From the NCBI GenBank assembly GCA_038867615.1, contig JAWBYA010000002.1:1-64000 (forward strand): a DNA stretch of 64,000 nucleotides, read 5' to 3'. The notes beneath the pieces are model-generated. The model had not been told where the DNA came from. It saw nothing but the letters and a program-made list of their open reading frames with translations, and did not search any database. Every line of letters starts with the position of its first letter. The stretch's first letter is position 1. Positions 4,155 through 42,735 of this stretch are shown here, one piece after another. The stretch comes from Sulfolobales archaeon. GTDB taxonomy: Archaea > Thermoproteota > Thermoprotei_A > Sulfolobales > AG1. The position numbers were made by a program, and so were the translations under genes.

Positions 4155-4877
4155 TTATAGAGCTTCTGCAATAAGGATCCTTTTTGCTATGTCCTCGATC
4201 CTTCTATATAGTTCCAAAATCTCCCTAGCATCGATCTCTGTGGGCTCGTAATCAGGATCATATCTAGCCTTATTCCTTCTCTCAAGGGCTCTGTATAGCT
4301 CTGCTATGATCTCTCGATCTATCGTCCCGCTTGCCACGTAGATCTCTCCAAAAACATGTATATATCCCGCATGGGTTCTCGGAAGATCTCTCCCCGAGAC
4401 TATTATTAGGGCTTTTATCAATAGCTCTACAGCGTTATATCCGAGATCTATTGCTGCTCTATAGATCAGCTGCTCTGCTATCCTTTCAGAATACTCGTAA
4501 TACTCTCTAGCTAGTCTAGCTAGCTTTAAAGCTCTCTCTCTAACGATGCTTTGGTTCATATATAGAACCTCCCCATATTTTTCGACCTCGTAGATAAATG
4601 GGCTATCGCTTCTCTTTGATAAGTATTCCTCAAGATCCATCGATATATACTCTATAGGCTCTCTGTATTCGAGCCATATCTGGTGTGCTGCTTCTGCAAG
4701 AATAGTTCTCGATCTATCATCAACCCTGTCTAGTATGACTAGAACATCTATATCGCTCTCCTCAGCTGCTTTTCCCTTAGCAACACTGCCGAAGAGGTAG
4801 ATCTTATGCACTCTGTTTGTTAGCTCTCTAGCAACTATTGACACGAATCTCGTTGCTGCCTCTCTCTTTCTATCCAT
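4155..4877 (-). CDS. Fused minimal nucleotidyltransferase (MNT)-HEPN domain protein
   Basis: LFGSVAKG...SDIDVLV MNT motif; C-terminal HEPN with YNAVEL, PRTHAG and RNKARY. Confidence 0.85.
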   Translation of the reverse strand: MDRKREAATRFVSIVARELTNRVHKIYLFGSVAKGKAAEESDIDVLVILDRVDDRSRTILAEAAHQIWLEYREPIEYISMDLEEYLSKRSDSPFIYEVEKYGEVLYMNQSIVRERALKLARLAREYYEYSERIAEQLIYRAAIDLGYNAVELLIKALIIVSGRDLPRTHAGYIHVFGEIYVASGTIDREIIAELYRALERRNKARYDPDYEPTEIDAREILELYRRIEDIAKRILIAEAL

Positions 4878-5257: not shown

Positions 5258-5451
5258 GGAAGAGAAAGATCCTTATACCAGAGCCCAGAAGCAGGTTTGT
5301 GAGGGTAAGATGCCCCCAGTGTGGTAACGAGCAGGTTATATTCGATCACGCTACTTTTCCTGTGAGATGCTTTATCTGTGGAACCCAGCTTGTTAGGAGC
5401 ACCGGTGGTAAGGCTATAATCAACGGCGAGGTTATAAAGATCCTGGGGTGA
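5254..5451 (+). CDS. rps27e: 30S ribosomal protein S27e
   Basis: [20 protein letters not shown]...CFICG...TGGKA. Confidence 0.96.
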
Positions 5452-5458
5452 GGTTTTT

Positions 5459-6268
5459 CTGGTACTCAAGAGGAAACAGATCCCAGATGTTGGAGAGCTT
5501 GTTATAGCAACCGTTAAGGAGATCTTTGACTACGGTGCCTATGTAACCCTGGACGAGTATAGGGGTTACAGAGCCTTCCTACCGTGGAGCGAGATTACTG
5601 CAAGGCATTTCAAGGATGTTAAGGAAGTGCTGAGGGAAGGGCAGAGGGTTGTGGCTAAGGTGATAAGGGTTGATAGGACTAAGAAGCCCCCCGCGATCGA
5701 TATATCAACTAAGAAAGTGAGTGAGGAGGAGAGAAGGGATAAAATGATCCTTTGGAAAAGGGCTCAGAAGGCCCACAACGTGCTAGAGGTTGTTGCAAAA
5801 AGACTCGGTGTAGGGGTTGAGACTATCTATGAGAAGGCTGGGTGGAAGCTTGAGGATAGATATAGAGAGATCATGAGGGGGTTAGAGGAGCTCGCGATAA
5901 GAGGAGAGGATGCGGCCGCAGGACTGGGGATTGATGAGAACATCCTGAAGATCCTTGTGGAGGAGGCTAGAAGGCATGTAGAGATCAAGAAGGTATCTAT
6001 CTCCGGGATAATAACGGCTAAGTCCAGAGCCCCTGACGGTATAAAGAGGATCAAGGATCTCTTGGGAGGAATGATTGACGAGGTCTCGAAGAAATACTCC
6101 GGGGGCAATATAAAGATAGAGATCTACACCCTAGGAGCCCCCAGATATAGACTGACCCTCGAGGGTACGGATTACAAGGTCCTTGAAAGAGTATTATCGG
6201 AAGCTATAGAGAATGCTAAGGATACTGCTAAGAAGCTCGGTATCGAATTCTCCTTCGAGAGATCCTAG
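5459..6268 (+). CDS. eif2a: Translation initiation factor 2 alpha subunit (probable CTG start)
   Basis: Reading in frame upstream of the ORF-track start gives the S1 domain (PDVGELVIATVKEIFDYGAYVTLDEY...AFLPWSE); C-terminal GAPRYRL; conserved L44e-S27e-aIF2alpha-Nop10 order. Confidence 0.93.
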   Translation: MVLKRKQIPDVGELVIATVKEIFDYGAYVTLDEYRGYRAFLPWSEITARHFKDVKEVLREGQRVVAKVIRVDRTKKPPAIDISTKKVSEEERRDKMILWKRAQKAHNVLEVVAKRLGVGVETIYEKAGWKLEDRYREIMRGLEELAIRGEDAAAGLGIDENILKILVEEARRHVEIKKVSISGIITAKSRAPDGIKRIKDLLGGMIDEVSKKYSGGNIKIEIYTLGAPRYRLTLEGTDYKVLERVLSEAIENAKDTAKKLGIEFSFERS

Positions 6269-6282
6269 AGATCGAGGCTAGC

Positions 6283-6516
6283 GTGATGAAATATAGGATT
6301 AGAAAATGCTCTAGGTGCGGGAGATACACTCTCAAAGAGAAATGCCCCATATGCGGTGCAGAAACAATATCCCCGCATCCAGCCAGGTTCTCGCCAGACG
6401 ATAAATATGTGGAATACAGGGTAAAAGCACTATATAGCGAATCAGGGAAGAGCGAGGAGACAGGGAGTAGCAGTGATAGAGAGGGTAATGCAGCATCTAC
6501 AGATGCCAAGACCTGA
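6283..6516 (+). CDS. nop10: H/ACA RNP component Nop10
   Basis: IRKCSRCGRYTLKEKCPICG...PHPARFSPDDKY. Confidence 0.95.
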   Translation: MMKYRIRKCSRCGRYTLKEKCPICGAETISPHPARFSPDDKYVEYRVKALYSESGKSEETGSSSDREGNAASTDAKT

Positions 6517-6547
6517 AGATTCAAACAAACCGTACGGGTAGATCTAT

Positions 6548-7606
6548 ATGGTGCTGAGAAAAACCCCGTTTGTTGGGAGGGCTAGGGAGCTTGAGTGGAT
6601 AAGGAGACGCAACGAGAACCAGGTATACTTACCAATATTCATCTACGGTCCCGAGGGTTGTGGTAAAACTACACTCTTTATAGAGGCTGTTAGAATGTTC
6701 AAGAGATGGTTTAGCGATGGCCTTGCTATCTATATAAATGCTGAGGAGGACAGAGATCCCAGAAGGATCTTTCATTTCTCAGAGAGCCTAGAAGCGATCG
6801 TTGATTCAATAGCAGAGTCTCTAGGTATGTCGCTGCTCAAGCTGGCTGGTAGATTAGTGGCTGATAAGGTTGGGCTCGTGGTTGAGAAGATCTATCTGAG
6901 ATCCAGGGGTGTGGATCGCGTTTTCGTTGTTATCGATGAGGTTGTAAGATCGCTGGGCTTAAGGAGTGTTGAGGGCTATGCAAAATCCCTCTATAATGCC
7001 ATGAACTTTAGGAGTGAGGGTGAACCCCTCTACGGAAAGATCCTGAACTACATGGCGATAACATCCGAGGGTAGATCTAGAGATCTCCTCTCGAGACATA
7101 GCTATGTGGGCCAATCATATATATGGAATCTCTCTAAAGAGGATTTTGAAAAGCTATATATAGAGCTAGTAAAGATCTATAGCCCTGAGGATCCGTCGAG
7201 AACCCCTAGCTTTTCCACAATATGGAGACTTTATGGCGGTAACCCTAGGAGACTCATTGAACTTGCTACGGAGTTTAGGTGGGATATAGAAGCCCATATA
7301 GAATCGATCAGGCGTGAAAAAGGGATCCCAGGGATCGTTCATATAGCGAGGGAAAAGAACCTGGTCAAGAGGTTAAGAGAAGCTACAGAAGATCCCGACA
7401 ATCTCTATAAAGCAACAGGCACGCTAAGATTAGCCAGACTCCTAGTAGAGAAAAACCTGATCATGGAGCTTCCCCGAGGCCTAGCCCTTGGAGACACCGA
7501 TCCCCCCGTTAATAGCGAGCTAGGAATAGGTGAGAATTGGGCGTGGCAAGTACCGGTATATAGGGATCTTGTTCTCAAAGAGATCGAACGTGTGTCGAGC
7601 GCTTGA
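6548..7606 (+). CDS. Archaeal P-loop ATPase (expanded crenarchaeal paralog family)
   Basis: FVGRARE, Walker A YGPEGCGKT, Walker B VVIDEV, GGNPR and AWQVP. Confidence 0.85.
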   Translation: MVLRKTPFVGRARELEWIRRRNENQVYLPIFIYGPEGCGKTTLFIEAVRMFKRWFSDGLAIYINAEEDRDPRRIFHFSESLEAIVDSIAESLGMSLLKLAGRLVADKVGLVVEKIYLRSRGVDRVFVVIDEVVRSLGLRSVEGYAKSLYNAMNFRSEGEPLYGKILNYMAITSEGRSRDLLSRHSYVGQSYIWNLSKEDFEKLYIELVKIYSPEDPSRTPSFSTIWRLYGGNPRRLIELATEFRWDIEAHIESIRREKGIPGIVHIAREKNLVKRLREATEDPDNLYKATGTLRLARLLVEKNLIMELPRGLALGDTDPPVNSELGIGENWAWQVPVYRDLVLKEIERVSSA

Positions 7607-7857
7607 TTAGAGATAGGTACTAATCCTGCTTCAACTATATGTGGTTTTCACTGTTAGAGGATCTTATCCTGCATATCTGATCATCGATCAAGTGAAATAC
7701 CCAGGTATTTCGCTATCTACCCTAGGATCTTTCTTTTCTTGGGGCTATGTGCTATCACCCCTCCTATCCTATAATATATATGGGGTCTCTCTTCTTGTTC
7801 CTCTTATCAAACATAGTTACTCCTAGTAAGGGTTATCTAGCAATCTCAAGAGGATCT

Positions 7858-8307
7858 GTGGAGTTGCGAGAAGAGATAGCTAGGCATATCCTATCAAAGG
7901 CGAGCAAGGCCGAGATCCTTTGCAGGAACCCGCTTATCATAAGGCTTAGGGCTAGGGGTTATAGTGAGGCTAAAGCCCTTATAGAGGATCTCAGTAGTGA
8001 TGTAATCATAGTGAGGGAGAATGGAGAGCTTGTTAGAGAGCTCTGTGGGGCTGGGAAGAGCTCCCCATATGCCGAGATCTTTGCCTCTCTAGCTAACCAG
8101 ATCCGTGTTAAGGGTCGCAACATACTTTCAGAGCTTGTCAGAGTAACCCCTCTAGTAGCCCCTTCAGCTGTGTCTACGGTTGGGAGGATTATAAACGATA
8201 TGAACATGATCATTGCGGGGTCTATAGCAAGTGGTGGTATACTTATAATTAATCTCTATAGCTCGAGAAAAAGGCAAAGCCACGGGAAGATTTCGAAAGA
8301 GGCTTGA
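7858..8307 (+). CDS. Hypothetical protein
   Basis: Coding-like ORF; GTG at 7858 is the likely start (ORF track 7747); no family recognised. Confidence 0.55.
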   Translation: MELREEIARHILSKASKAEILCRNPLIIRLRARGYSEAKALIEDLSSDVIIVRENGELVRELCGAGKSSPYAEIFASLANQIRVKGRNILSELVRVTPLVAPSAVSTVGRIINDMNMIIAGSIASGGILIINLYSSRKRQSHGKISKEA

Positions 8308-8429
8308 GGCGATATATAATTATATGAAGGCCTAGACGATCTGATCTCAGCTAATAATATCGATCTACTCAAAACCGCATTGACCCGCTGGTTGTTTGTC
8401 ACACAACAAAGATGGTTCTTAATAATAAG

Positions 8430-9137
8430 CTAACGATCAGGGTTTGTTCTAGGCTCAGCATAGCATCCCGAGGGTTTACCGCGAAGCAATATCCTCAACA
8501 CATGGGTTAGATAAGCCACAGGCCCTGGCCTTCTCTCTACAGGCTCTACCATGCCTTTTCTAATGCTCTCCAGGATGTCTTCTACCTTTAGATCGCTTAT
8601 CTCTATGATATTATGAGCAACCCCGATGAAACTAGGTATATGGGCATCGCTGTCCGAAAGGCCTGGAAGCCCTAGTCTCTCTCTAGCCTTTCTAGCTTTT
8701 CTATTGGATAGAGGGTCTGAGAGGGAGTTGAAGACCTCTATCGCGTCTAGCCTTAAACCATAGATCTTTTCCCCCAGCCCTAGCCTCCTTATATCGAATG
8801 GGTGGGGAGCATAGGATATACATCCCTCTTCTCTCGAGACCTCTATAACCTCTTCAGGATCCCTCCCAACCATCCTCTCAACCCTGTCAGAGGGTTTTTC
8901 ACAGAGAACTATTAGATCGCCCATGCTTGTCTTAACCTCGTTACCAGGGATCACTACCATGCTAGCACCGATCCTCTCAACAGCCTTTACTGCAAGCCAG
9001 TACCCCGAGAATGTATTATGATCTGTGACCGCTATAGCCCTCAAACCCCTCATAAGTGCCCTCCTAACTATCTCCTCACCCCCCATAGAGCCGTCGCTAC
9101 ACACACTATGGATCTGTAGATCTGCCTTTATCCTCAA
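8430..9137 (-). CDS. PHP-domain metal-dependent phosphoesterase
   Basis: DLQIHSVCSDG, AVTDHN, APHPFD, IEVFNS, SDAH. Confidence 0.9.
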   Translation of the reverse strand: MRIKADLQIHSVCSDGSMGGEEIVRRALMRGLRAIAVTDHNTFSGYWLAVKAVERIGASMVVIPGNEVKTSMGDLIVLCEKPSDRVERMVGRDPEEVIEVSREEGCISYAPHPFDIRRLGLGEKIYGLRLDAIEVFNSLSDPLSNRKARKARERLGLPGLSDSDAHIPSFIGVAHNIIEISDLKVEDILESIRKGMVEPVERRPGPVAYLTHVLRILLRGKPSGCYAEPRTNPDR

Positions 9138-9334
9138 AAGCCCCCCCCCACATTATCTCTCAACAACCCATTAATTCAACACTATAAGGCCTGTGCCTTA
9201 GCTATTATGAGCCGCATACGCTGCAAAGCTAGTTTGTAGAAGCTTTTCTTTACAATGGTCCTGTAACTATGGGTAGCCATCCTCCGTTTACTAATCAATA
9301 TATCTCCCCACACCTCTTGCTATGTGTGATTAGA

Positions 9335-10027
9335 ATGTATATGTGGATCTCTTCTCTGAGGTTTCTCAACAGCTTCTGGAGCTCTAGCTCTAGAGGTGAG
9401 ATTGCTGAAGATCTGTTAAGGGGTTTTGAGGAGATATCCAGAGAATCTCTTTTAACAAGGACATATCTACCCCTCAGGGGAGGTATAGATCTTATTGTAT
9501 GGCTTGCATCGGAATCGCTATCCCCTATATCTAGGCTAAGGATCCTCTTGAGAAGCTCTTTCGGGCAACACGTTGAGGAGATCCATACATTCCTAACAAT
9601 ATATAGAGCATCACCCTATCTAGCCCATCACCAGGATCTTAGAGAGAATATTATTAGGGCTTCGAAAGAGCCGCTGAGGTATTTAATAGCATACCCAATG
9701 AAGAAATCGCCCGAGTGGTACCTATTACCATTTAAAGAGAGGGTCGAGATAATGGCTGAGCATGCATCGATGGCGAGAAGCCTCTCCTCAGGCAAAAAAA
9801 TAAGATCCTATACCACCTATAGCTATGGTATTGATGATAACGAGTTCCTCGTAATCTACGAGGTAGAGGATCTCGCTGAGTGGTCTGTTATCGTGGAGAG
9901 GCTTAGAGAGGCGCGGCATAGAAAATGGATCGTGAGGGAAGAGCCCCTGCTAGTTGGAGAGCTATTAGAGGATATTAGATCATATATAGGTGGGAGATCT
10001 ACAGCATCACCTAAGCTGGATCAATAG
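9335..10027 (+). CDS. Chlorite dismutase/coproheme decarboxylase (Cld/ChdC) family heme protein
   Basis: YPMKKSPEWYLLPFKERVEIMAEH (proximal His) and TYSYGIDDNEF; likely start ATG 9335 (ORF track 9269). Confidence 0.85.
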   Translation: MYMWISSLRFLNSFWSSSSRGEIAEDLLRGFEEISRESLLTRTYLPLRGGIDLIVWLASESLSPISRLRILLRSSFGQHVEEIHTFLTIYRASPYLAHHQDLRENIIRASKEPLRYLIAYPMKKSPEWYLLPFKERVEIMAEHASMARSLSSGKKIRSYTTYSYGIDDNEFLVIYEVEDLAEWSVIVERLREARHRKWIVREEPLLVGELLEDIRSYIGGRSTASPKLDQ

Positions 10028-16649: not shown

Positions 16650-17777
16650 CTATGTGATGATATCGCTTAAGCAGCCCCTCTCCACACATTCCCTAATCTC
16701 CTCAGCTATCCTCCATCCCATGCTGACAGGTCTGCCGAAGTATAGTTTAGAGTACTGGCTCCCTACCCCCATATACGCGTTAGTACCTCCCCCTATTCTG
16801 AAAGCTACATCGAAGACCACTATGTCTAGATCCTTCGTAACAACTAGCTGGAGCGTGAATGGACCCACTATCCCTGGCGGCTCTATCTTACGTGTAGCCT
16901 CAACAAATCTATCCCCAGCATCGAAGAGCTTCTCCAACATGCTCTCACGTATTGTAACTGGCTCATGCCCTATCTCGATCATCTCGATATCGATATAGTC
17001 GCCAAGATCTAGCTGTATGTTTGCTGGGAGCTTGAGTATACCATCTAGGTTCGTCTGGATCCTTCTATCGATACTGAGTATCTCGATCCTATTCTTGGCA
17101 ACAGAGTGGAAGTAGTTTACATTGAAATGGGCTCCCAGCACGAGCTCTTCTATCGATGCTCTCCCCATATCTTCCTCCCTAACCACGCCCCTTTCTATGA
17201 GTCTATCCAGCTTACGTTTTAGATCGCTTTTATCTAATGCTATAAAGAACCCCCTCTCAACCCTCTTCTTCGCATGAGGAATCTTAACAATAACAGGCCT
17301 ATCCACCTCATCCACATCCCTGAAGATCATTGGGCGCCTCAGCCTAGCCTCATCGAGAAGCTTATAGTAGGTCTTATCCCCCACACGCTCCTCATATCTA
17401 AGTAGATATCTGTTACCAAAGATAGGTAACGGGAATTCTCTCTCGATGTTCTCATACCCAACATATACCGCAAAGCTTCTGTTGGGGATAAAGATCGCGG
17501 AGCGTTTTCTAAGCCTGTCTATGATCTCAGGCCTAACCACGTCAGCGAATCTGTTTAGCAAGACTACCTCGTCTATAACCCTACTAAACCTAGCATAGGT
17601 CTTCTCCCTCCCCACCTCACAGACCGCTATCGTTTCAAAACCCACATCCTTAGCCCCGTCAAAGACGTCTAGCGCCGAGTGACTAGCTATAGCTGCTATG
17701 CCTATTCTCTTAGTATCATAACCCTTTAACAGATCGTTGGGGTTATATTTCAATGCTCTCACCACACCTCCACCCAA
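16650..17777 (-). CDS. purP: PurP-family ATP-grasp formate-dependent ligase
   Basis: ASHSALD, PNRSF, ERGFF, DRRIQTNLDG, GPFTLQ, RIGGGTN; the start is probably the GTG a few codons in. Confidence 0.88.
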   Translation of the reverse strand: MGGGVVRALKYNPNDLLKGYDTKRIGIAAIASHSALDVFDGAKDVGFETIAVCEVGREKTYARFSRVIDEVVLLNRFADVVRPEIIDRLRKRSAIFIPNRSFAVYVGYENIEREFPLPIFGNRYLLRYEERVGDKTYYKLLDEARLRRPMIFRDVDEVDRPVIVKIPHAKKRVERGFFIALDKSDLKRKLDRLIERGVVREEDMGRASIEELVLGAHFNVNYFHSVAKNRIEILSIDRRIQTNLDGILKLPANIQLDLGDYIDIEMIEIGHEPVTIRESMLEKLFDAGDRFVEATRKIEPPGIVGPFTLQLVVTKDLDIVVFDVAFRIGGGTNAYMGVGSQYSKLYFGRPVSMGWRIAEEIRECVERGCLSDIIT

Positions 17778-18080
17778 GCCTTATCCTGACAGACCCGGTT
17801 CCTTCGGTTATTCTACCTAGAACCCATGATCTAAACCCAATTCTGCCTGCTGGGCTGAGGAGCTGCTCAACCCTATCAGGAGGGCTGGTTAGAATGAGAC
17901 CCACCCCCATGTTGAAGACCCTGTAGGACTCATCTAGATCTATATCACCGTAAGACAAGATTATCTCGAAGATCCTGCCAGGTTTTGGAGCATCAGCCAC
18001 AGCATCTAGGCTGTTGCCCAGGACTCTCTCCATCTTCAACCATCCTCCACCGGTCACATGAGTAGCTGATGATATATATA
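17743..18080 (-). pseudogene. purM: 3' remnant of AIR synthetase
   Basis: ATHVTGGGW...ESYRVFNMGVGLIL...VLGRITEG matches the PurM C-terminus; the N-terminal two-thirds is absent. Confidence 0.8.
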
Positions 18081-18316
18081 GCTATTTTGAACACTTTCAT
18101 AGTGATCCCTCTGAAGCCATCATGATCTAGAAAATGAGCCTCAAACCCAGAGTCCTCAAGCATCCGGGAGAGACGTGAAGAAACAGATACGCAAAGAGCA
18201 CCCTTGCTCAGCGCCGACGCCTTAATAGCGCAGTCACTTGCTGTGGCCTCTTCTTTAAACTCGAACACAAGCTCGCTAGTCTTTCTTACAAAAACGCGCT
18301 TACTTTTACCCCTCAT
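18081..18316 (-). pseudogene. purC: 5' remnant of SAICAR synthetase
   Basis: RGKSKRVF...LVFEFKEEATASD...KGAL...SRMLEDSGFEAHFL matches the PurC N-terminus (GKAK...FKD.ATA.DG...GKG...THF); breaks off after about 78 codons. Confidence 0.75.
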
Positions 18317-25991: not shown

Positions 25992-26612
25992 CTATGTCGT
26001 TACAAAGTAAGGCTCTGTTACAGCATCTGAAGAGACCAGGATAATCCACATACCGCTTATACCGTGACCGGGTACTCCACAGGCTATCCAGTAAACGCCC
26101 TTCTGGATAGATGAAGCTTCCATCACAGTTGTCTCATCAGGGCCTATACCTTCCTTGAACCCCGATACGCCGAGCTTTCCATCAGGCGCCCACACAACAA
26201 GCTTTCCATCCTTAGTAAGATCCGCGTTCTTGGGCGTGGGTGTGTTATTCGCCACTATCCCAACGCTGTGCGGAAGACCGCTGGGATCTTTGTTAACATA
26301 CTTGATCACGAGGTTCCATCCAGCAGGGATATATATTACTAGCTTACCCTTAGTACTTCCGTTAAAATCATAGTTAGCGGTCCTGGTATCTAGTGTAACA
26401 TATACAGTTTTACTCGATGCATCGTAAGGCAGCTTATTCCCTGTAGGTGCTGGCGAAGGTGTGGTTGCTGGTGCTGTTGCAGGGGGTGTGGTTGCTGGTG
26501 CTGGTTTTGACGCTATCTGCTGATAGTAGAGATAGATTATAGCTACTGCTAAAACGATCACGACTATAGCGATGACAGCTGTTGTAGCACTCACAGCCCT
26601 TCCCAGCTTCAC
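25992..26612 (-). CDS. Sulfocyanin-like membrane-anchored blue copper protein
   Basis: TM anchor, Pro/Ala/Thr linker, FNG...IYIPAGW, LPHS and YWIACGVPGHGISGMW (His/Cys/His/Met type-1 Cu ligands). Confidence 0.88.
   Translation of the reverse strand: MKLGRAVSATTAVIAIVVIVLAVAIIYLYYQQIASKPAPATTPPATAPATTPSPAPTGNKLPYDASSKTVYVTLDTRTANYDFNGSTKGKLVIYIPAGWNLVIKYVNKDPSGLPHSVGIVANNTPTPKNADLTKDGKLVVWAPDGKLGVSGFKEGIGPDETTVMEASSIQKGVYWIACGVPGHGISGMWIILVSSDAVTEPYFVTT
26458..26503. repeat. 19-nt direct repeat with period 27, encoding the APATTP linker
   Basis: ggtgtggttgctggtgctg at 26458 and 26485. Confidence 0.8.
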
Positions 26613-29981: not shown

Positions 29982-30000
29982 TACACTACAGAACTATTAT

Positions 30001-30056
30001 CTTGATGAGCTGGGTTTTAAGTCCTGACATATGATGAAAAACCCACGCGGCGAATC
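30001..30056 (+). ncRNA. Box C/D-like small RNA
   Basis: C box TTGATGA (30002), D' CTGA (30024), C' ATGATGA (30031), degenerate D box GCGA (30050); intergenic, with an upstream TATA. Confidence 0.6.
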
Positions 30057-30363
30057 CAAAACACCACCCATAGATCCCCGCCATTCTATTAGATAAACCC
30101 ATAACTTCGCGTAGAGTAATAGAAGGCCCGTACCGTCGACACAGCCAGTTAAATGTGACCCCTATCCACGAGGTTAATAAAACCAGTGCCGAGCAATTAG
30201 CTCAGAGCAAATACTAATAATACTAATCACTATGATGCGAACCTTATATTTGATCCATGGATGGATCAGAGGCGATGTAGATCTACTATAGAGATAGATC
30301 CTTGGAGGAAGAGATTCTGCATAACCATAAATATAAAAAAGATCTATCCTGCTATAGAAATTC

Positions 30364-30999
30364 CTACTTAGAGTTGAAAATTATGATGCTTATAGACTCT
30401 AACACTGCTAGCTGGGGTGCCTTGTTAGAGTATCTTTTTATAGATTCGGAGAGCCCCTTTATAGTAGGTTCAAGATAGGTTTCAAGAAGTCTGGCTGTCT
30501 CTTTGCATGACTCAACACCTTTGGAATCGCCTTTGGCTTCGAAATAAGCCTCTTTAACTTTGATGAATGAGAATAGCTGGAGCATTGGGGCTATATGATC
30601 TGGCATCTCCTCTCTAACCCTGATCCCGTGATTTCTATAGAGACCCGATATCTCGGATTTAAGGCGAATCTTATCCGCATCTCTTACATAGTCAGAGGCA
30701 TATGGAGATATGCCTCCCAGCTCTACCCTTGAGTTGATATCATCAGCCAAGCTGGGGTTCTCGTTCAGAGCGCTTAAAGCCTCTTCAAGCAGAGCCGCTA
30801 TTTCAGGTCTTAACATGCTAGCTATCCGTGTCAGCTTTGTAAAAACTTCTTTTAACTCTTCCCCCCTTGTAGTGAATATCGAAGAGGCATAGTTTAGGAA
30901 AGCAGCCAAGAGCAGTTTTTGAGCATCACCCTCTAGACTCATAAAACACTCACCATATCCATAGACAGTCGTTCCTAGAGCCTCATTTATACCTACCAT
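30364..30999 (-). CDS. TorD/DmsD-family molybdoenzyme chaperone (delta)
   Basis: SPYASDY...ISGLY...EMPDHIA; last gene of the molybdoenzyme operon. Confidence 0.85.
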   Translation of the reverse strand: MVGINEALGTTVYGYGECFMSLEGDAQKLLLAAFLNYASSIFTTRGEELKEVFTKLTRIASMLRPEIAALLEEALSALNENPSLADDINSRVELGGISPYASDYVRDADKIRLKSEISGLYRNHGIRVREEMPDHIAPMLQLFSFIKVKEAYFEAKGDSKGVESCKETARLLETYLEPTIKGLSESIKRYSNKAPQLAVLESISIIIFNSK

Positions 31000-31010
31000 A
31001 ATAGTATGTA

Positions 31011-32009
31011 TTACTCAAGCCTTAGTGTCAAGAGCGAGGTCACACCCTTCCTACTGCCCCTCTCCCCCTTAGAGCCCTCCCATACAGCGAACGCTATGTG
31101 GTATGTGTTTCCAGGCGTTAGTTCTATTTCTCCCTGATCCTTATCTGAAGCTTTTAGTCTCTTCACAATGACGACGCTCCAAACACCGTTTGACCATTTA
31201 CCCTTACCATTCGCATCCTGTGTCCTAGCCGTCACTATTGTGCCTGGTCCTTTTCCTATGATCTTCTCAATGTATTTCCTTTCCAACCTAACCCTGTTTA
31301 TAGGATTGCCCGCGGCAAATGCTGCTAGATAGACCTCTTCCCCCTTAACCTCACCTATTCTAATAGGCTTGGGCTCTGCCTCTTTCACAGTACCCTTGTA
31401 TGGTGGATACGCATCTATAGCAATATTGGGGAACATATCTGTTATATCCTGAAGCCCCTTCTCCGCTTCGAGCTGTAATCTAGCCTCCCAAACCAGCATT
31501 GTGGCTGGGTACTCTGGGGTTCCCATCATCCATGCCTTACCTGCTAGTTCATCTGGTATCGGGTATTTGAGTAGCATGACCGCACAGCGATCGCTGAACC
31601 TATCTACATCCAACCCAAAGTCGGGGGTCTTATCAGCCCATTCGATCCTGAAGGCTATGTTCTCAGCATCGTATAGGGCTTTGACCTTAACACTCTTAAC
31701 TCCAGGGCTTGGTTCGAAGGGCCTCACCATTGCCTGAGGATCTAATGTAAACTCGACTTCCCTGACCAGGTTCCATTTAGGATCGTCAGGATCTATGGGC
31801 ACACTATCTACCCTAGAAGCAGAAATATCAGCCGGAGTCGGAGTCGGAGTAACTGGTGCTGGTGTAGGCTTCGGAGCCTCTGCTGGGGGTCTCTGTGTAA
31901 GCCTAAGGAACGAGGCAATACCTATCGCAACACCTAGTATCGTGGCTGTTATGCCTAGAAATGCTGTTAAAAGCCTCCTTCTAACCCTTCTACCCGTATT
32001 CTTAGCCAT
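31011..32009 (-). CDS. Heme b DOMON-type gamma subunit (ethylbenzene dehydrogenase gamma-like) with an Arg-rich N-terminal signal/anchor
   Basis: RIEWADKT, FSDRCAV, MMG (Met ligand), W.VVI.R.L, IAFAVWEG...ERGSRK (Lys ligand). Confidence 0.85.
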   Translation of the reverse strand: MAKNTGRRVRRRLLTAFLGITATILGVAIGIASFLRLTQRPPAEAPKPTPAPVTPTPTPADISASRVDSVPIDPDDPKWNLVREVEFTLDPQAMVRPFEPSPGVKSVKVKALYDAENIAFRIEWADKTPDFGLDVDRFSDRCAVMLLKYPIPDELAGKAWMMGTPEYPATMLVWEARLQLEAEKGLQDITDMFPNIAIDAYPPYKGTVKEAEPKPIRIGEVKGEEVYLAAFAAGNPINRVRLERKYIEKIIGKGPGTIVTARTQDANGKGKWSNGVWSVVIVKRLKASDKDQGEIELTPGNTYHIAFAVWEGSKGERGSRKGVTSLLTLRLE

Positions 32010-32020
32010 TTGCTATCACC

Positions 32021-33175
32021 TCACACATCGTTCCTCCTATAGACCCCGAGCTTTTCATCATAGTAGGGTCTCACCACTACCTGTTCTGTTATGGGGATCC
32101 TGACGACCTCGTTGCCTTTCTCGTTATAGCCTGCGACATACTCGCCCCCTATAACTTTAAACCTGTGGATTATCCTGTCGGTAGAGTTCGAAAGGATCAG
32201 GGCTCCTATGACCTCCATATCCTGCTTCTCAATCGCCCTCACATAGTTGTTCACAGCCTCCTCGCCCATGGGGCCGAACATCATTCTCACGAAATCCGTG
32301 TTCTTTATATTGATGGGGGGTATGTAGTAAATGTTAGGCTCAAGACCTAGTTGTGGAAGCAGAGGAGCCGCGATCCTCTTTACATGGACTAGGAAGTCTA
32401 TTGGGTTCTCCGGATCCGCTTTCTCAGGTAAGCTTATATAGCCAAACATCCTTATCTTACCTATACAGTTCCTGAAGCACCTCGGTATCTCTCCCTTCTC
32501 CAAGGCTGGATAGCAGAATATACATTTCTCCGAAACCCTTGTTACCGGGTTATAGAAGACCTTTTTATAGGGGCATGACTTCACACACTCCCTATAACCC
32601 CTACACCTGAACTGATCCACGAGGACAACACCGTCGTCCCTCTTATAGATAGCCTGCCTGGGACATGCTGCAAGACATGAGGGGAAGGTGCAGTGGTTAC
32701 ATATCCTTGGTAGGAAGAAGAACCACGGGTCGAAGGGGGCCCTATAGGAGCCCAGCCTTAAGGAGTTGCTAGCCTCACCCTCTCCTATGGCTGGGAAGGC
32801 ATAATCATGGCTCTCAGGCATATAGCCTAGAGCTACCTCGCCCGAGGGCGCAGCCTCGAATATGGTCTTACCTCTATAGACCCAGGCGCTGCCCTCTTTC
32901 CTCCACCTCATAGGCTCGAGCTTAGCAAGCATGGATAGTATTTTTACATCCCAGCGCAGCGGATACGACCCCCAAGGCTTATCCTCAACGTTATTCCATA
33001 GCATGTACTCCTGGCCTCTCCCAGAAGTCCATGTAGTCTTACATGCTACGGTGCAGGTCTGGCAACCTATGCACTTGTTAAGGTTGAATATACCGGCAGC
33101 CTGTCTCTTAGGTCTAGCTGCTGGATATGGGTAATCCATCTCCCTCCCAATCTGCCAATTATAGACCCTGGGCAT
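32021..33175 (-). CDS. Fe-S beta subunit, NxrB/NarH-like
   Basis: MPRVYNWQIGREMDYPY N-terminus typical of Nitrospira-type NxrB; CIGCQTCTVAC, ICNHCTFPSCLAACP, CRGYRECVKSCPY, KCIFCYP. Confidence 0.92.
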   Translation of the reverse strand: MPRVYNWQIGREMDYPYPAARPKRQAAGIFNLNKCIGCQTCTVACKTTWTSGRGQEYMLWNNVEDKPWGSYPLRWDVKILSMLAKLEPMRWRKEGSAWVYRGKTIFEAAPSGEVALGYMPESHDYAFPAIGEGEASNSLRLGSYRAPFDPWFFFLPRICNHCTFPSCLAACPRQAIYKRDDGVVLVDQFRCRGYRECVKSCPYKKVFYNPVTRVSEKCIFCYPALEKGEIPRCFRNCIGKIRMFGYISLPEKADPENPIDFLVHVKRIAAPLLPQLGLEPNIYYIPPINIKNTDFVRMMFGPMGEEAVNNYVRAIEKQDMEVIGALILSNSTDRIIHRFKVIGGEYVAGYNEKGNEVVRIPITEQVVVRPYYDEKLGVYRRNDV

Positions 33176-33181
33176 GTGACA

Positions 33182-36100
33182 TCACCCCTCCACGATCACA
33201 TAACCACCTTTAAGATAGATCTTCATGTCATCATCCTCGTATGTAGGCCTCACCTTCAACCTCACAGGCCTCCAAGGAGATTTCCCATCCTCACCTCCAG
33301 GCTCGAGCTTTACTATTTTGGCGAACCCCTCTCTAGGCGCCCCCACAGGGCTGTGTATATCTGGTGCGAACCCTTTACCCATTACTGCTACTAGCGGCGA
33401 CTTCCTGAATAGATCGTCTGTCATTAGAGTGGGTTTAAGCCATGTCCTCGTAACACTCTGGTGGCCTCCATACCTGAAGGAGGATATATAGCCTGTTCTC
33501 TCGTTTAGTGCCAGCCCATCAGGCCTCTTCTCATGCCCCTCAACGGTTCCATGACTTGCCATGTAGAAGTTAAACCATATCCTAGTCATACCCGGTGGTA
33601 TGCTATTGTTAAACCTGATCCTAGCCACCAGAGTGAAGGCTTTACGCTCCTCGGGCTTCTTATCAAGCCCCATGAAAGGCTCATAATCCGGATCTCCCTC
33701 AACCCTTACATAATCCCCATCGTCTAGTCCAAGCCTCCTCCCATCCTCAGGGTTTATGTCTACATAGCCCTCCGCAACCCAGGGCATCCTTTTATCCCTC
33801 CTGTAAATATCGCCGTATGGTGTGTAGTGTATTGCTAGTATATCGACGTTGCTGCATATGGTATGTATTAGTCCTTTATGCTTCGGGGTTATAATTATAT
33901 GGGTATATCCCTTAGCCTTGAGCGGGTGGCTTGTGGTTTTAACAACACTCCAAGGCTTGGCCACATGCCTAACCTGTCTAACCTCCTGGTCTAGGTTGTT
34001 AGGATCTAGCCCTAGATCTTCTGGCTTTAGAGGTCTTATTGCTTGGTGCGGCTTGTTAAGTATTATAACATTGGGCTCATAAGGCGTCGAGTTAGCAGGC
34101 TCCCTATAGACCGGTATGTTCTCCCCACTCTCTATGAAGGGGACTTCCTCTTTGTAGAACTCAAGCCTCCCAGTCTTAGTCCACCACGGCGCGCTCTCAT
34201 TGGTCTGCTCCCACCCGACAACGCTTGGTGTTGTCCTTGTAGCATACACAAACGGTATACCCTTCTTAGCATACTCCTCCAGCATCTCGTACGTCAGCCC
34301 CTTAGTCGCGTTGCCTGCAGCCAGCACTCTGTTAATATAAACCTCAGCCTTGTTCTCATGGATAAACCTCCAGTAATCCTTCATTCTCGGCTCTCCTAGG
34401 AGCTCGGCCATTTTAGCTGATATCCCAGCCATAACCTCCATATCGTCCTTCGTGTCGAATATCCTTGGCAACGGGGTTCTGGGCCATGCTACTATGAACG
34501 GGGTTGTCACGGTAACGGCTATGTCTGGGAGTTTCCTTTCAATCCAGCTGTCAACCCCGAATACAACGTCGGAGTACTCACATGTTAGAGTCCAGAACCA
34601 TTCTAAGGTTACTATAAGCTCTACTTTGGGTAGAACGTTAACTATAATGTTATAAGCCCATTTAGAGTTGCCGAGCGTCGAGTTAGCGTTTGCAAAGAAC
34701 ACTACCTTGGTTGGTGTGGGCATGTGGGTCTTGCCTGTGAACAGCCTACCAGCAATCTCTAGAGGCCTATCACCATAAGCATAGTAGTGAGCCGACTCTG
34801 CTGTGAAGTAAGATCTAACTCTAGCAGGCTTAGTTGGATCGAGCTCTGGATTGAAGGGATCCTCGGCTGTCCATTGTATTATACCATTAGTTAGCTCGAG
34901 TTTGAAGTTCCCAGCGTAGGTTCCTAAAGTCCCACCCATGTTGCCTATGTTGGCCGTTAAGGCTGCGAGAAGCATTATAGCTCTGTCTTTGAGGTCTCCA
35001 TGGAGGTATTGGTTTATACCCATGCCTAGGACAAAGAGGGTTTTACCCCTATTCTCTGCTATCTTCCTAGCAAGTCTCTCTATAGCCTCGGGCTCCACAC
35101 CCGTTATCTCGGATACTGTCTTCGGATCCATGCTGCTCATCACATACTCCTTCACGAGGTCAAAGACAGGCCTAACCTTGACTCTAGTACCATCTACCAA
35201 TGCAACCTCGAATTCTCCCTCCAATGCGGGGTCTACTCCCAACTCGTCGAAGTATTTGCCAACATGATCCCTTGAGACCACTTTAGGCGAGCCGGTCTTC
35301 AGATCCCAGGCTACGAAATCATCTATCTCATCTCTTAAAGCCTTGGGCCAGAACTGTACCCCTTGGAGCGCAGGGGGCGGGGGCGTCTCTTCAGGAGCTA
35401 TGACCTTAGTCCTGTTCTTGAGCTCCACAGGCTTGTAATCCTTGATTATATCTCTCGCCCTCAGGAATTTCAGGTTATCCATTCTAACAAGCAAGGGCAG
35501 GTCTGTGAACCTCTTGATGAAGGCCTCATCGTAGAGTTTATCCCTGATTATAACGTGAACCAGGCCTAGGGCTAATGCTGTGTCGGTTCCGCTCCTCACA
35601 ACTATATGTTCACGAGCCTGTGTAGCTGTGATCATGTATTCGTTAGATATTGTTATAATCTCAACACCCTTCGTACGAGCCTCTGAAAGCCATTTTGCTA
35701 CAGGCATTTTGGTCGAAACCCAGTTCATGCCCCAGATTATCGCGAGCCTTGCATGCTCCACCAGGTGTAGGTGGAAGTCTACAGCCTTAATCCCTGCTGT
35801 CATAGGCTGCCCCGGCGCCAAGTCGGTATGCCAGGCATAGTTATCCCAGGCTCTTCCACCTGCAGCCTTATCTGGGCCTACACCTCTGATCTTAGCGTCT
35901 AGTAGTGCGAGCATGTTGGCGAATCTCCAGAGAGAGGTTATCCTCATGGGGGCATTGAGAGGCATGCCAGCTCTAAACTTAAATGTTCTAACCCCAGCCT
36001 CGCTTACGGTCTCAACCATTTTGGGATGATAGCCTTGTTTGAGTAGCTTCTCAGCACCTGCCTTTCCACTATATGTCTCAGCTATATTGATCAACGCTTT

Positions 36101-36691
36101 GGCTACTATCTCGAACGCCTTATCCCACGGAACCTTTACAAACCTTTCCTTACCCCTACCCTCAAAATATCTAGCCGGAGGCAGTCCGGTCTCAGGGTCT
36201 CTGGGGAACCCGTCTTCAACCCATCTGAGGAAGCCTTCCCTGATATATGCGCCCTTAACCCTTCTATTAGAGTAAGCCCTCCTAGCTATAGCTACACCTG
36301 TAGGACATGTCATGGGATCCCATCTATGGGAAACCTTGTTACCATAAACATCCATAGCCTCTCCATAGCCATAGCTTGGATCTACATAGACCACAATACC
36401 GTTCTTAACAGCGGCTCTCAATATACACACGAAAGTGCAGTTGGGAACGCATGAGAACATGAACGTCTCGTCAGGCTCATAGATCCTCTTATAAACATCC
36501 TCCCAACCCCTGCCATAAGGATATGCCTCCAGCGGGTTGAAACCCTCAAGAGGCATTAGATACCTGTATACAAGAACCCCTTCAGGGATTAGGGTTGAAA
36601 ACGCAAGGGCCAGAGAACCTTTAACAGTGAGTGTGAGGAACTCTCTCCTCGAGATAGCAACATCTAGACCTTCTAACCTTGGCTCCGATAT
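33182..36691 (-). CDS. Molybdo-bisPGD catalytic alpha subunit, periplasmic NXR/Nar-like, with TAT signal (probable ATA start)
   Basis: The frame extends upstream to ISEPRLEGLDVAISRREFL plus a hydrophobic segment; FS0 motif CVPNCTFVC...C; TFKFRAGM; WDNYAWHTDL (Asp Mo ligand); FTGKTHMPTPTK; FRYGGHQSVTR. Confidence 0.92.
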   Translation of the reverse strand: MSEPRLEGLDVAISRREFLTLTVKGSLALAFSTLIPEGVLVYRYLMPLEGFNPLEAYPYGRGWEDVYKRIYEPDETFMFSCVPNCTFVCILRAAVKNGIVVYVDPSYGYGEAMDVYGNKVSHRWDPMTCPTGVAIARRAYSNRRVKGAYIREGFLRWVEDGFPRDPETGLPPARYFEGRGKERFVKVPWDKAFEIVAKALINIAETYSGKAGAEKLLKQGYHPKMVETVSEAGVRTFKFRAGMPLNAPMRITSLWRFANMLALLDAKIRGVGPDKAAGGRAWDNYAWHTDLAPGQPMTAGIKAVDFHLHLVEHARLAIIWGMNWVSTKMPVAKWLSEARTKGVEIITISNEYMITATQAREHIVVRSGTDTALALGLVHVIIRDKLYDEAFIKRFTDLPLLVRMDNLKFLRARDIIKDYKPVELKNRTKVIAPEETPPPPALQGVQFWPKALRDEIDDFVAWDLKTGSPKVVSRDHVGKYFDELGVDPALEGEFEVALVDGTRVKVRPVFDLVKEYVMSSMDPKTVSEITGVEPEAIERLARKIAENRGKTLFVLGMGINQYLHGDLKDRAIMLLAALTANIGNMGGTLGTYAGNFKLELTNGIIQWTAEDPFNPELDPTKPARVRSYFTAESAHYYAYGDRPLEIAGRLFTGKTHMPTPTKVVFFANANSTLGNSKWAYNIIVNVLPKVELIVTLEWFWTLTCEYSDVVFGVDSWIERKLPDIAVTVTTPFIVAWPRTPLPRIFDTKDDMEVMAGISAKMAELLGEPRMKDYWRFIHENKAEVYINRVLAAGNATKGLTYEMLEEYAKKGIPFVYATRTTPSVVGWEQTNESAPWWTKTGRLEFYKEEVPFIESGENIPVYREPANSTPYEPNVIILNKPHQAIRPLKPEDLGLDPNNLDQEVRQVRHVAKPWSVVKTTSHPLKAKGYTHIIITPKHKGLIHTICSNVDILAIHYTPYGDIYRRDKRMPWVAEGYVDINPEDGRRLGLDDGDYVRVEGDPDYEPFMGLDKKPEERKAFTLVARIRFNNSIPPGMTRIWFNFYMASHGTVEGHEKRPDGLALNERTGYISSFRYGGHQSVTRTWLKPTLMTDDLFRKSPLVAVMGKGFAPDIHSPVGAPREGFAKIVKLEPGGEDGKSPWRPVRLKVRPTYEDDDMKIYLKGGYVIVEG

Positions 36692-37138
36692 GGAGACCTC
36701 ACCCCGCAGTGTGTGCCGTGGTAGTATGATAAGTTAAGCTAAATCAGCTGCACCTTAATAATAAGATGCCCGGTCTAAAATCTACTCACATATAAAAACC
36801 TATGAAATAGTGCATCTTTACAAGAATATGCAGAACTATATATGGATATATAGAGATACATAGATCACTATTCAAAGATCTTTGAAAAAGAAGCACCACA
36901 CAGCATTGCTTAGATCTCATATCATCGATGCTGTTTAACACCAATAACTCTTTATCCTTGGTCCGTGTTGCTAAAAACCTGCCCCAGCTATTAACCAAAC
37001 CCCCGTACGAAAGGCTTATAATCAGTTCAATAATAAAAGTAAGGCCTACTTACCAACGGGGTTGAGGAGGAATTGGGAAGGTAAAGATATTAAGGTGTGT
37101 TAGTCAACATATTTTAGAGCGATGGTGGAGGAAGCAGG

Positions 37139-42658: not shown

Positions 42659-42735
42659 GGGCCGGTAGCTCAGCCTGGAAGAGCGCTCGGTTGGCATCCG
42701 AGAGGACCCGGGTTCAAATCCCGGCCGGTCCACCA
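42659..42735 (+). tRNA. tRNA-Ala(GGC)
   Basis: Acceptor stem GGGCCGG/CCGGTCC with G3-U70; anticodon arm CTCGG-TTGGCAT-CCGAG; GGTTCAAATCC; encoded CCA. Confidence 0.96.

Follow-up and report, generated by a model that had tools for sequence, protein, structure and literature searches.

Introduction

The nitrite oxidoreductase (NXR) of Kuenenia stuttgartiensis works in both directions, and its structure assigns roles to Asp275 as ligand of molybdenum (Mo), to Asn70, which is proposed to hold the substrate, and to Met155 and Lys305 as haem ligands (Chicano et al. 2021, PMC8387239). As presented in the same paper, the FS0 iron–sulfur (Fe–S) cluster of this enzyme is held by three Cys and one Asp (C67, D71, C75 and C115), and from the NXR/NAR alignment given there only FS0 coordination of the 3Cys/1Asp or 3Cys/1His type is inferred. 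A 'sister clade' of the NXRs found in Nitrospira, Nitrospina and anammox bacteria, as delineated by Kitzinger et al. (2018, PMC6050957), holds NxrA of Nitrotoga together with the nitrate reductase of Hydrogenobacter thermophilus. The gene order nxrABCD is described as typical of Nitrotoga and of nitrite-oxidising Chloroflexota (PMC11009272), and the relevant sections of papers on Caldarchaeales and Nitrososphaeria list the same ambiguous genes (PMC10547907, PMC10833072). Here we describe a locus of this kind in a Sulfolobales archaeon (assembly GCA_038867615.1). It consists of four genes on contig JAWBYA010000002.1, within a stretch of 64,000 nucleotides (positions 1 to 64,000 of the forward strand; hereafter, the window).

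We propose that the four genes form a self-contained, accessory nxrABCD-type cassette, and that its product would be an outward-facing, membrane-tethered nitrate/nitrite oxidoreductase running mainly as a respiratory nitrate reductase. We hold this reading at a probability of roughly 0.45.

Results

A complete nxrABCD-type operon

The original prediction, made by a model from the DNA alone, described a complete unit of a Tat-signalled alpha subunit (Tat, twin-arginine translocation), an Fe–S beta subunit, a haem b gamma subunit and a TorD-type chaperone. The operon observation is confirmed: four minus-strand open reading frames (ORFs), separated by gaps of 6–11 nt, lie within 30364–36691 (Table 1), and both the ORFs and the family scores agree with the description. 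Alpha matches PF00384 with 81.1 bits (cut-off 24) and has the domain for the molybdenum bis-molybdopterin guanine dinucleotide cofactor (Mo-bisMGD); beta matches PF13247 (100 bits), gamma PF09459, EB_dh (104.4 bits; cut-off 33.3), and the chaperone PF02613 (28.9 bits; cut-off 22.2). Scores against narrower models are 303.2 bits for alpha with TIGR03479 (cut-off 984.75) and 143.3 bits with the narG model (cut-off 1084), 255.4 bits for beta with TIGR03478 (cut-off 480.7) and 22.4 bits for the chaperone with TIGR03482 (cut-off 152.3). Alpha, beta, gamma and chaperone thus have the characters of the family of type II dimethyl sulfoxide (DMSO) reductases (Nar/Nxr/Ebd/Pcr/Clr/Ser/Ddh).

All motifs quoted in the original prediction are present in the translations (NPLEAYPYGRGWEDVY, TFKFRAGM, WDNYAWHTD, FTGKTHMPTPTK and RYGGHQSVTR in alpha; MPRVYNWQIGR in beta), and the translation of beta contains four Cys groups: CIGCQTCTVAC, CNHCTFPSCLAACP, CRGYRECVKSCP and CIFC...CFRNC. 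Gamma begins with a hydrophobic anchor, followed by a Pro/Thr-rich linker and the EB_dh domain. The unit had been said to lack NarI or any quinol-oxidising cytochrome b gene, and indeed the cassette contains neither; nor was NarI found in the host genome (94.4% complete). The order A-B-C(-D) is common to all six Chloroflexota loci and all three other crenarchaeal loci. Between the flanking MCM and L15e genes we found no additional ORF of at least 60 aa clear of the four genes; two short frames are listed there, one of 66 aa overlapping the alpha start region and one of 70 aa in the upstream spacer. The operon has a GC content of 0.49 and its flanks 0.45–0.47; we rejected this as a base-composition anomaly, since the RNA polymerase operon likewise has 0.49.

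Among chains in the PDB, Kuenenia NXR gives the highest scores for all three subunits: 828.2 bits for alpha (7b04_B; PcrA, 192.3; NarG, 125.6; EbdA, 116.6), 348.4 bits for beta (7b04_A; EbdB, 222.9; PcrB, 203.4; NarH, 171.7) and 53.6 bits for gamma (7B04; EbdC, 39.3). Because the E-values against solved structures range from zero to 1e-13, chance matches are not an issue. The ligands are retained in the alignments. NYAWHTD of the window aligns with NYTWHGD of Kuenenia, which holds the Mo-ligand Asp275, and the window alpha has Asn at the place of Asn70. In gamma, the Met/Lys motifs noted in the original prediction correspond to predicted haem ligands M162 and K321, which align with Met155 and Lys305 of Kuenenia NXR-C and are invariant in a four-row alignment (4/4 gammas).

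The FS0 motif of the window, CVPNCTFVC, has Cys where Kuenenia has Asp71. It therefore departs from the C-x3-D-x3-C pattern of the Nitrospira/Nitrospina/anammox clade proper, and, starting with Cys, also from the His-x3-Cys-x3-Cys pattern of NarG and Haloferax pNar, the outward-facing nitrate reductase. Among the 120 nearest homologues the position is Asp in 108 and Cys in 12, nine of the latter having the crenarchaeal form C..NCTF.C. We read the all-Cys FS0 motif as a lineage-specific variant of the crenarchaeal subclade; it falls outside both coordination types inferred by Chicano et al.

Phylogenetic placement of the alpha subunit

Of 7998 candidates scored in a word-indexed protein search, 1820 reached E ≤ 0.001. 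The best alpha homologues are 84% and 79% identical. The next tier, at 65–55%, comprises metagenome-assembled genomes (MAGs) labelled Sulfolobales, Caldarchaeum, Nitrososphaerales and Armatimonadetes, plus Candidatus Nitrotheca patiens, whose 'nitrite oxidoreductase subunit A' is 55% identical to the window alpha (634/1158). Searched exhaustively, the 50%-cluster representatives yielded 3739 matches at E ≤ 0.001, 218 of them at E ≤ 1e-30. Two trees were built, a quick one of 65 rows (LG+G4, with the Shimodaira–Hasegawa-like approximate likelihood ratio test, SH-aLRT) and a careful one of 39 rows (ultrafast bootstrap, UFboot, and SH-aLRT). The rows were drawn from the window alpha, its counterpart in 'Desulfurococcaceae archaeon AG1' (hereafter AG1), 33 of the 120 top matches (a choice made by name and spread) and 23 representatives of full length; fragmentary sequences among the 150 cluster representatives listed were excluded. 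Named references were Haloferax mediterranei NarG, Alicycliphilus ClrA, a Pcr-like enzyme with an adjacent cld gene, NarG of Cupriavidus and E. coli, a Halobaculum sequence and the long portion of a Natronococcus gene with a frameshift.

The window alpha and AG1 fall in a crenarchaeal group (7 rows, 100/100 in the 39-row tree; 11 rows, SH-aLRT 100 in the 65-row tree) that adjoins a Caldarchaeales/Nitrososphaerota group (4 rows in the 39-row tree). Both archaeal groups lie inside a larger clade with Nitrotheca NxrA (22 rows in the 39-row tree and 38 in the 65-row tree; 100/100), within which a smaller clade unites the window alpha with NxrA of Nitrotheca patiens, a member of known phenotype (16 rows, 100/100, and 27 rows, 100, respectively). 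P0122, which represents the Kuenenia/Nitrospira type in our trees as a stand-in (1060 bits to 7B04_B; 40% identical to the window alpha), branches just outside the 22-row clade, which places the window alpha outside the Nitrospira/Nitrospina/anammox clade proper (100/100). Further out, at progressively greater distances in both trees, come the Pcr-like, Clr, Haloferax pNar and NarG groups. Haloferax-type pNar and NarGHI form separate clades, and the cassette contains no Rieske/cytochrome b or NarI partner of the kind that goes with those enzymes.

On the basis of these trees, we place alpha in the sister clade of periplasmic NXR/pNAR (Nitrotoga, Nitrotheca/Nitrocaldera, Hydrogenobacter, Caldiarchaeum), with Nitrotheca NxrA. 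The original prediction had favoured the periplasmic NXR lineage of Nitrospira and anammox bacteria, with its sister enzymes, over NarG/pNar. The enzyme is indeed nearer NXR (bit scores 3–7 times those against PcrA, NarG and EbdA), but it is a sister of the Nitrospira/anammox clade and not within it. The outcome that had been named as refuting that view, alpha branching inside ordinary archaeal pNar/NarG, was seen in neither tree. A complete genome of the same order encodes a canonical NarK-NarGHJI, with narG at 1596 bits (cut-off 1084) and narH, narJ and narI passing too; its NarG shares 48% identity with E. coli NarG and only 27% with the window alpha. Taken as a whole, the archaeal subclade seems to be old.

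We reasoned that the enzyme might act on another substrate, such as (per)chlorate, which the original prediction had listed as a possible role. Members of the family have diverse substrates, the subfamily scores all lie below their cut-offs, the FS0 motif is unusual, and a gene of the chlorite dismutase family lies 20 kb away. However, alpha is distant from ClrA and from the Pcr-like enzyme with adjacent cld in both trees, and it retains the Asn proposed to hold nitrite/nitrate, a position occupied by Ile in ethylbenzene dehydrogenase (PMC8387239). The chlorite-dismutase-family protein scores 144 bits against Thermoplasma TA0507, 64 against coproheme decarboxylases and about 40 against working chlorite dismutases. 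With its nearest matches being TA0507 and the decarboxylases, it is probably haem-related, and we rejected it as a clue to (per)chlorate respiration; no chlorite dismutase of the functional type lies alongside the cassette. We conclude that a different substrate is improbable, and that (per)chlorate reduction in particular finds no support in the trees or in the neighbouring gene.

A probable ATA start codon upstream of the Tat signal

The original prediction placed a Tat motif, SRREFL, on an alpha subunit starting at 36691. The motif is in frame, 27–32 codons 5′ of the first ATG (36556), and the codon at 36691 is ATA. This ATA pairs with Met1 of the 84%-identical homologue P0001 (MSEPR... versus ISEPR...) and is kept as ATA in AG1. 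Between the window and AG1, codons 13–45 show seven synonymous and three conservative changes, and Met46 of the window alpha is Val in AG1. Because the changes are mostly synonymous or conservative, the signal region appears to be under coding constraint. We conclude that ATA is probably read as a non-canonical initiation codon of alpha. A genome-wide count of codons following GGTGA/GAGGT motifs was confounded by reading-frame periodicity.

With TatC found in the host genome, alpha would be exported by Tat and would face outwards. Public gene calls of alpha are either 1124 aa long, with the signal dropped, or 1201–1225 aa, extending into the promoter region. A non-canonical start codon would cause public annotations to miss the Tat signal, and automated calls of 'cytoplasmic' versus 'periplasmic' would err.

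It is conceivable that the operon is decaying or its product mislocalised, with alpha made from Met46 without a Tat signal and no working outward-facing complex formed. Such an explanation could draw on the lack of an in-frame ATG, GTG or TTG ahead of Met46, on the several public annotations that begin there (1124 aa), and on the frameshift in a haloarchaeal relative on a Natronococcus plasmid. We consider it highly improbable: the four frames are all intact, the signal-peptide codons change mostly synonymously relative to AG1, where Met46 is Val, and the ATA that aligns with Met1 of the 84% homologue is preceded by GGTGAGG in both genomes.

The cassette is patchily distributed and occupies different sites

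AG1 matches the window collinearly for 19.5 kb, a span that includes the operon, with DNA identity of about 92%, and its alpha is 96–97% identical. The DNA identity, together with RpoG and sulfocyanin, bears out the assignment of the host to the crenarchaea. In a sample of the order, 4 of 201 genomes have a match to alpha at E ≤ 1e-50, the window's own included. In a sample of the class, matches at E ≤ 1e-20 occur in 17 of 351 genomes, and a full-length orthologue (at least 63% identity) in four: the window's own genome, G049 (96%), G242 from another family (85%) and G059 from the same genus (63%). Within the genus the cassette is present in three of six genomes; the three without it are 81, 86 and 93% complete.

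In the congener G069 the MCM and L15e genes, 96.7% and 96.0% identical to those of the window, are 309 bp apart, compared with 7.2 kb in the window. The cassette occurs in three different genomic contexts: that shared by the window and AG1, that of the 63% variant in G059, which lies elsewhere in the genome between HEPN/nucleotidyltransferase pairs and adjoins MoeA/MobB, and a third around the 85% variant in G242. Given the patchy distribution, the three contexts and the empty site in G069, we conclude from these genome comparisons that the cassette is an accessory unit, one that hot-spring crenarchaea exchange or lose. The horizontal acquisition proposed in the original prediction is thus supported by the patchy distribution and by a clean 7.0-kb presence/absence difference. 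Scars of a mobile element at this indel were considered and rejected: there is no flanking direct repeat, no Rfam family and no integrase-size ORF at the indel, and no tRNA between 20000 and 45000 except tRNA-Ala at 42659.

Several observations were made around these loci. In G059, three HEPN/nucleotidyltransferase pairs flank the cassette (L052, G059:C41; 7334–8267 and 15478–17019), followed by MoeA and MobB, in a variable region. In the window, a 54-nt element lies directly downstream of MCM, and the operon-bearing segment starts immediately after it. The element is 96% conserved with G069, in a spacer that has diverged elsewhere, and with its two TGATGA boxes and single CTGA box it resembles a C/D-box small RNA; it has no Rfam match at gathering score. 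Metagenome contigs are about 5× as deep over it as in its surroundings and show loose ends at 30013 and 30048. On plasmid 2 of Natronococcus occultus SP4 (L020, about 5400–9195) an NXR-type alpha with 43% identity is frameshifted, its 148-aa N-terminal part with the Tat motif being in another frame than the 1068-aa remainder, and it is not in the gene table of that record; a beta gene and a TorD-type chaperone gene follow, and a haem-copper oxidase gene is nearby. Further features of the window are given in Table 1.

Host respiratory genes and a candidate redox partner

The original prediction recommended a search of the rest of the genome (2.22 Mb) for haem-copper oxidases and nitrite reductases. 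We found two haem-copper oxidases with CuA subunits, one of them a subunit I+III fusion, and one NirK-like protein. The latter scores 137.8 bits (cut-off 296.3) and carries an extra cupredoxin domain; its gene, the only one of its kind in the host (G000:C2:190020-190817; L038 409–2028), encodes 539 aa with the amicyanin-like cupredoxin domain at residues 378–442. The genome also encodes three sulfocyanins, one of them 3.7 kb from the operon, a single pair of SoxL2-like Rieske protein and SoxC-like cytochrome b on another contig, and two 4-hydroxybutyryl-CoA-dehydratase-like proteins. Its other molybdoenzymes are FdnGHI-like, TtrBCA-like and Psr-like, with one further. The FdnGHI-like formate dehydrogenase operon (G000:C1:165000-185000; L017) comprises a 1226-aa alpha, an Fe–S subunit, cytochrome b561 and FdhD, is accompanied by MobA and MoeA genes, and lies directly beside SoxM-like oxidase genes. 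No match to the Ccm/ResC families of cytochrome c maturation was found in the genome.

Since neither a quinol site nor a cytochrome c system was found, we reasoned that sulfocyanin is the most plausible link between the enzyme and the respiratory chain. We suggest, tentatively, that the sulfocyanin encoded near the operon is a candidate redox partner of the gamma haem. A complex predicted for the gamma domain, with haem, and this sulfocyanin scored 0.59, compared with 0.16 for the best control; the runs agreed in at least 97% of contacts, and the pLDDT (predicted local distance difference test) of the partner was at least 92. Of 78 solved complexes, 51 reached the mark applied to such predictions, as did 2 of 108 mismatched pairs, but at scores of 0.60 or less it was reached by only 5 of the 78 solved complexes and by all four passing mismatches (of 180). 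The prediction bears neither on the direction of the reaction nor on which of the three sulfocyanins binds.

Hot-spring and sediment metagenomes contain near-identical DNA: at least half of the sampled words are present in ten rows, four of them flagged as possible sources. One metatranscriptome run holds 6% of the sampled words, and five small contigs from it match, two exactly in alpha, one at 93% in beta, one in MCM and one in a spacer; these are contigs only and show neither level nor transcription.

Table 1 Features of the window, with coordinates and strand
Feature	Position	Strand	Remarks
nxrA-like catalytic alpha	33182..36691	-	1169 aa from ATA; 33182-36556, 1124 aa from first ATG
nxrB-like Fe–S beta	32021..33175	-	384 aa
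nxrC-like haem b gamma	31011..32009	-	332 aa
nxrD-like NarJ/TorD-family assembly chaperone	30364..30999	-	211 aa
Probable non-canonical ATA start codon	36689..36691	-	aligns with Met1 of homologue P0001
Twin-arginine motif S-R-R-E-F-L	36635..36652	-	codons 14-19 counted from 36691; hydrophobic h-region next
Shine-Dalgarno-like GGTGAGG	36697..36703	-	5 nt upstream of ATA; same in AG1; putative function
TATA-box-like TTATTATTAA	36755..36764	-	upstream of operon; identical in AG1; putative
7.0-kb segment with only the four genes and flanks	30054..37080		also in AG1; congener G069 has 197 unrelated bases
Sulfocyanin, blue copper	25992..26612	-	TIGR03094 130 bits (cut-off 168.4); N-terminal anchor and Pro/Thr linker like gamma
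Chlorite-dismutase-family protein	9269..10027	+	252 aa; probably haem-related
C/D-box sRNA-like element	30000..30053		54 nt
Fused nucleotidyltransferase-HEPN protein	4155..4877	-	240 aa; adjoins ribosomal protein L44e gene
Two short ORFs, possible gene remnants	17743..18316	-	matches limited to pieces of AIR-synthase C-terminal and SAICAR-synthetase domains; flanked by two DUF1246/DUF1297 (PurP-like) genes of divergent orientation

Discussion

Proposed mechanism and direction of the reaction

In the mechanism that we propose, the NarJ/TorD-like chaperone would mature alpha, with its Mo-bisMGD, Asp ligand and FS0, and alpha would be exported folded through Tat together with beta, which would carry four Fe–S clusters. 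The alpha–beta unit would then dock on gamma, a Met/Lys haem b protein at the outer face of the membrane, held there by one N-terminal helix and a Pro/Thr stalk. Because no quinol-oxidising subunit and no c-type cytochrome system was found, a small carrier at the outer face would be needed to connect the gamma haem to the respiratory chain, most likely one of the three sulfocyanins. The chemistry is reversible and would most often run as nitrate reduction when oxygen is scarce. Electrons may then pass from quinol through the SoxL2/SoxC-like Rieske–cytochrome b pair to sulfocyanin, and from there through haem b and the Fe–S clusters to Mo and nitrate.

We agree with the original prediction that the sequence alone does not settle the direction, and we favour nitrate respiration only slightly over nitrite oxidation. 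The cassette is dispensable in the genus, being absent from three of six genomes; the sister clade includes, as reported in PMC6050957, a periplasmic nitrate reductase with biochemical confirmation, that of Hydrogenobacter thermophilus; and the host has several modules for anaerobic respiration as well as the NirK-like gene.

Several points weigh against this preference. As far as the sequence goes, there is no feature that fixes the direction, and among relatives with a phenotype the nearest is the NXR of Nitrotheca patiens, which oxidises nitrite. The cassette contains no quinol-oxidising module, unlike the Haloferax pNar operon with its Rieske and cytochrome b genes. The host is aerobic, with high-potential copper carriers, which is the condition that Kitzinger et al. 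name for hidden nitrite oxidisers (PMC6050957); the same paper reports that nitrite was oxidised in 75 °C enrichments in which a related crenarchaeal MAG held the only nxr-like genes. The placement and the mechanism have soft spots of their own. The trees were built without named sequences from Nitrotoga, Hydrogenobacter, Nitrospira, Nitrospina, Pyrobaculum or Aeropyrum, and the NCBIfam subfamily scores are all under their curated cut-offs. The outward location is predicted from a Tat signal that has no canonical start codon, as the stretch from the upstream stop to Met46 contains no ATG, GTG or TTG in frame, and the sulfocyanin link draws on the lack of alternatives and a weak complex score.

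The enzyme may instead be a physiological nitrite oxidoreductase from which the host gains energy at 70–80 °C, at least facultatively, making it the first nitrite-oxidising archaeon. Electrons from nitrite at the outer face would then pass through Mo, the Fe–S clusters and haem b to sulfocyanin and a haem-copper oxidase. This we regard as a serious possibility, though less likely than not. The alpha shares a clade with Nitrotheca patiens NxrA (55% identity), and this clade is sister to one of exclusively nitrite-oxidising enzymes (PMC6050957; represented in our trees by the stand-in P0122), but it also includes a proven nitrate reductase (PMC6050957). The two haem-copper oxidases, the three sulfocyanins and the absence of a quinol-oxidising subunit from the cassette would suit such a chain, and the two 4-hydroxybutyryl-CoA-dehydratase-like genes are compatible with autotrophy; the Ttr-, Psr- and Fdn-like modules, however, are typical of facultative anaerobes. 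Core energy metabolism would be expected to be indispensable, whereas three genomes of the genus, out of six, lack the cassette, one of them with an empty site. From the field, the 75 °C enrichments from Iceland oxidised nitrite and had their sole nxr-like genes in an Ignisphaera/Desulfurococcaceae-related MAG (PMC6050957), and nitrate was produced at 70 °C in reactors with archaeal nxr-like genes, as described in PMC5877337; no follow-up of the 2018 hint was found in open-access full text and bioRxiv. Finally, the window DNA recurs in hot-spring metagenomes of several studies, and two exact small contigs of the alpha gene in one RNA library are a weak hint of transcription, though such contigs cannot prove it.

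A more specific form of this idea is that the host is a genuine thermophilic nitrite oxidiser with a cytochrome-c-free chain, and that the cassette spreads this ability among hot-spring archaea. Here electrons would run from nitrite to Mo, along the all-Cys FS0 and the Fe–S wire to the Met/Lys haem b, and on through a membrane-tethered sulfocyanin to a SoxM-type haem-copper oxidase. We give this a real chance, though we think it unlikely on balance. If true, archaea would have their first nitrite oxidiser, and the range of complete nitrification would reach beyond 70 °C.

Significance and novelty

We know of no archaeon that oxidises nitrite, and of no account that resolves nitrate formation above about 70 °C. 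This genome is a concrete candidate for nitrite oxidation with a specified electron path, from an NXR-type enzyme through sulfocyanin to an oxidase, and congeners without the cassette at an otherwise identical locus provide a natural control. At the same time, the locus advises caution in taking nxr-like genes as proof of nitrification, since the cassette is accessory and mobile and its clade includes a proven nitrate reductase.

The kind of enzyme and the lineage-level observation are already known. The original prediction held that nitrite oxidation would be new for archaea; it is still unproven for archaea, but the idea has been in print since 2018, when nitrite oxidation through such genes was proposed for a related crenarchaeal MAG (PMC6050957). 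Four aspects appear to be new, in that we did not find them in the parts of the literature examined: the crenarchaeal subclade's all-Cys FS0, the ATA start with its wrongly annotated N-termini, a congener with an empty site, and the cytochrome-c-free, sulfocyanin-based context. Our literature search found no paper on 'Desulfurococcaceae archaeon AG1', and the accessible portion of the Zestomicrobium paper contains nothing on nitrate enzymes. Kato et al. (2018) deals with other MAGs.

Comparison with known systems

The nitrate reductase of Haloferax mediterranei (NarGH with NarB/NarC) is, like the enzyme predicted here, an outward-facing archaeal type II enzyme with an EB_dh-type gamma and a TorD-type chaperone. 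However, its alpha is 28% identical over only half of the window alpha and belongs to a separate clade, its FS0 motif starts with His as in NarG, and its operon includes the Rieske and cytochrome b genes that the window cassette lacks. Hydrogenobacter thermophilus is closer by clade, a relation that we take from PMC6050957. Its nitrate reductase, described there as membrane-bound and facing the periplasm of a thermophile, is bacterial, unlike the window enzyme, and shows that the sister clade can respire nitrate.

The NXR-ABC of Kuenenia stuttgartiensis (PDB 7B04) is the best solved match for all three subunits, at about 40% identity, although it belongs to a different clade. It shares with the window enzyme the Mo-Asp, the substrate Asn, the Fe–S chain and the Met/Lys haem b. 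The tubule subunit NXR-T has no counterpart in the window; and whereas Kuenenia NXR-ABC was isolated from the soluble fraction and forms tubules in the anammoxosome (PMC8387239), the window enzyme is predicted to be membrane-tethered.

With NxrABC(D) of Nitrotheca patiens and Nitrotoga fabula the locus shares the order nxrABCD, the Tat motif of alpha, the EB_dh-type haem b gamma and the chaperone. The hosts of these enzymes are bacteria that use c-type cytochromes, whereas no cytochrome c maturation gene was found in the window host, where copper carriers are likely. Nitrotoga NxrC is described as having no membrane helix (PMC6050957); the window gamma carries an anchor at its N-terminus, with a Pro/Thr stalk. 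The FS0 position, Asp in most of the nearest homologues, is Cys in the window. Nitrotheca and Nitrotoga are nitrite oxidisers, whereas for the window enzyme nitrite oxidation is a candidate role, and Nitrotoga stands outside our trees.

Very close is AG1, whose GAY25870.1, annotated 'nitrite oxidoreductase/nitrate reductase alpha subunit', belongs to the same enzyme clade in a host of the same kind; the window is a different species-level genome. The Ignisphaera/Desulfurococcaceae-related MAG of Kitzinger et al. 2018 resembles the window, as far as that paper describes it, in the kind of host, in an enzyme that shares a clade with Caldiarchaeum-type sequences, and in a direction of catalysis that is left open (PMC6050957).

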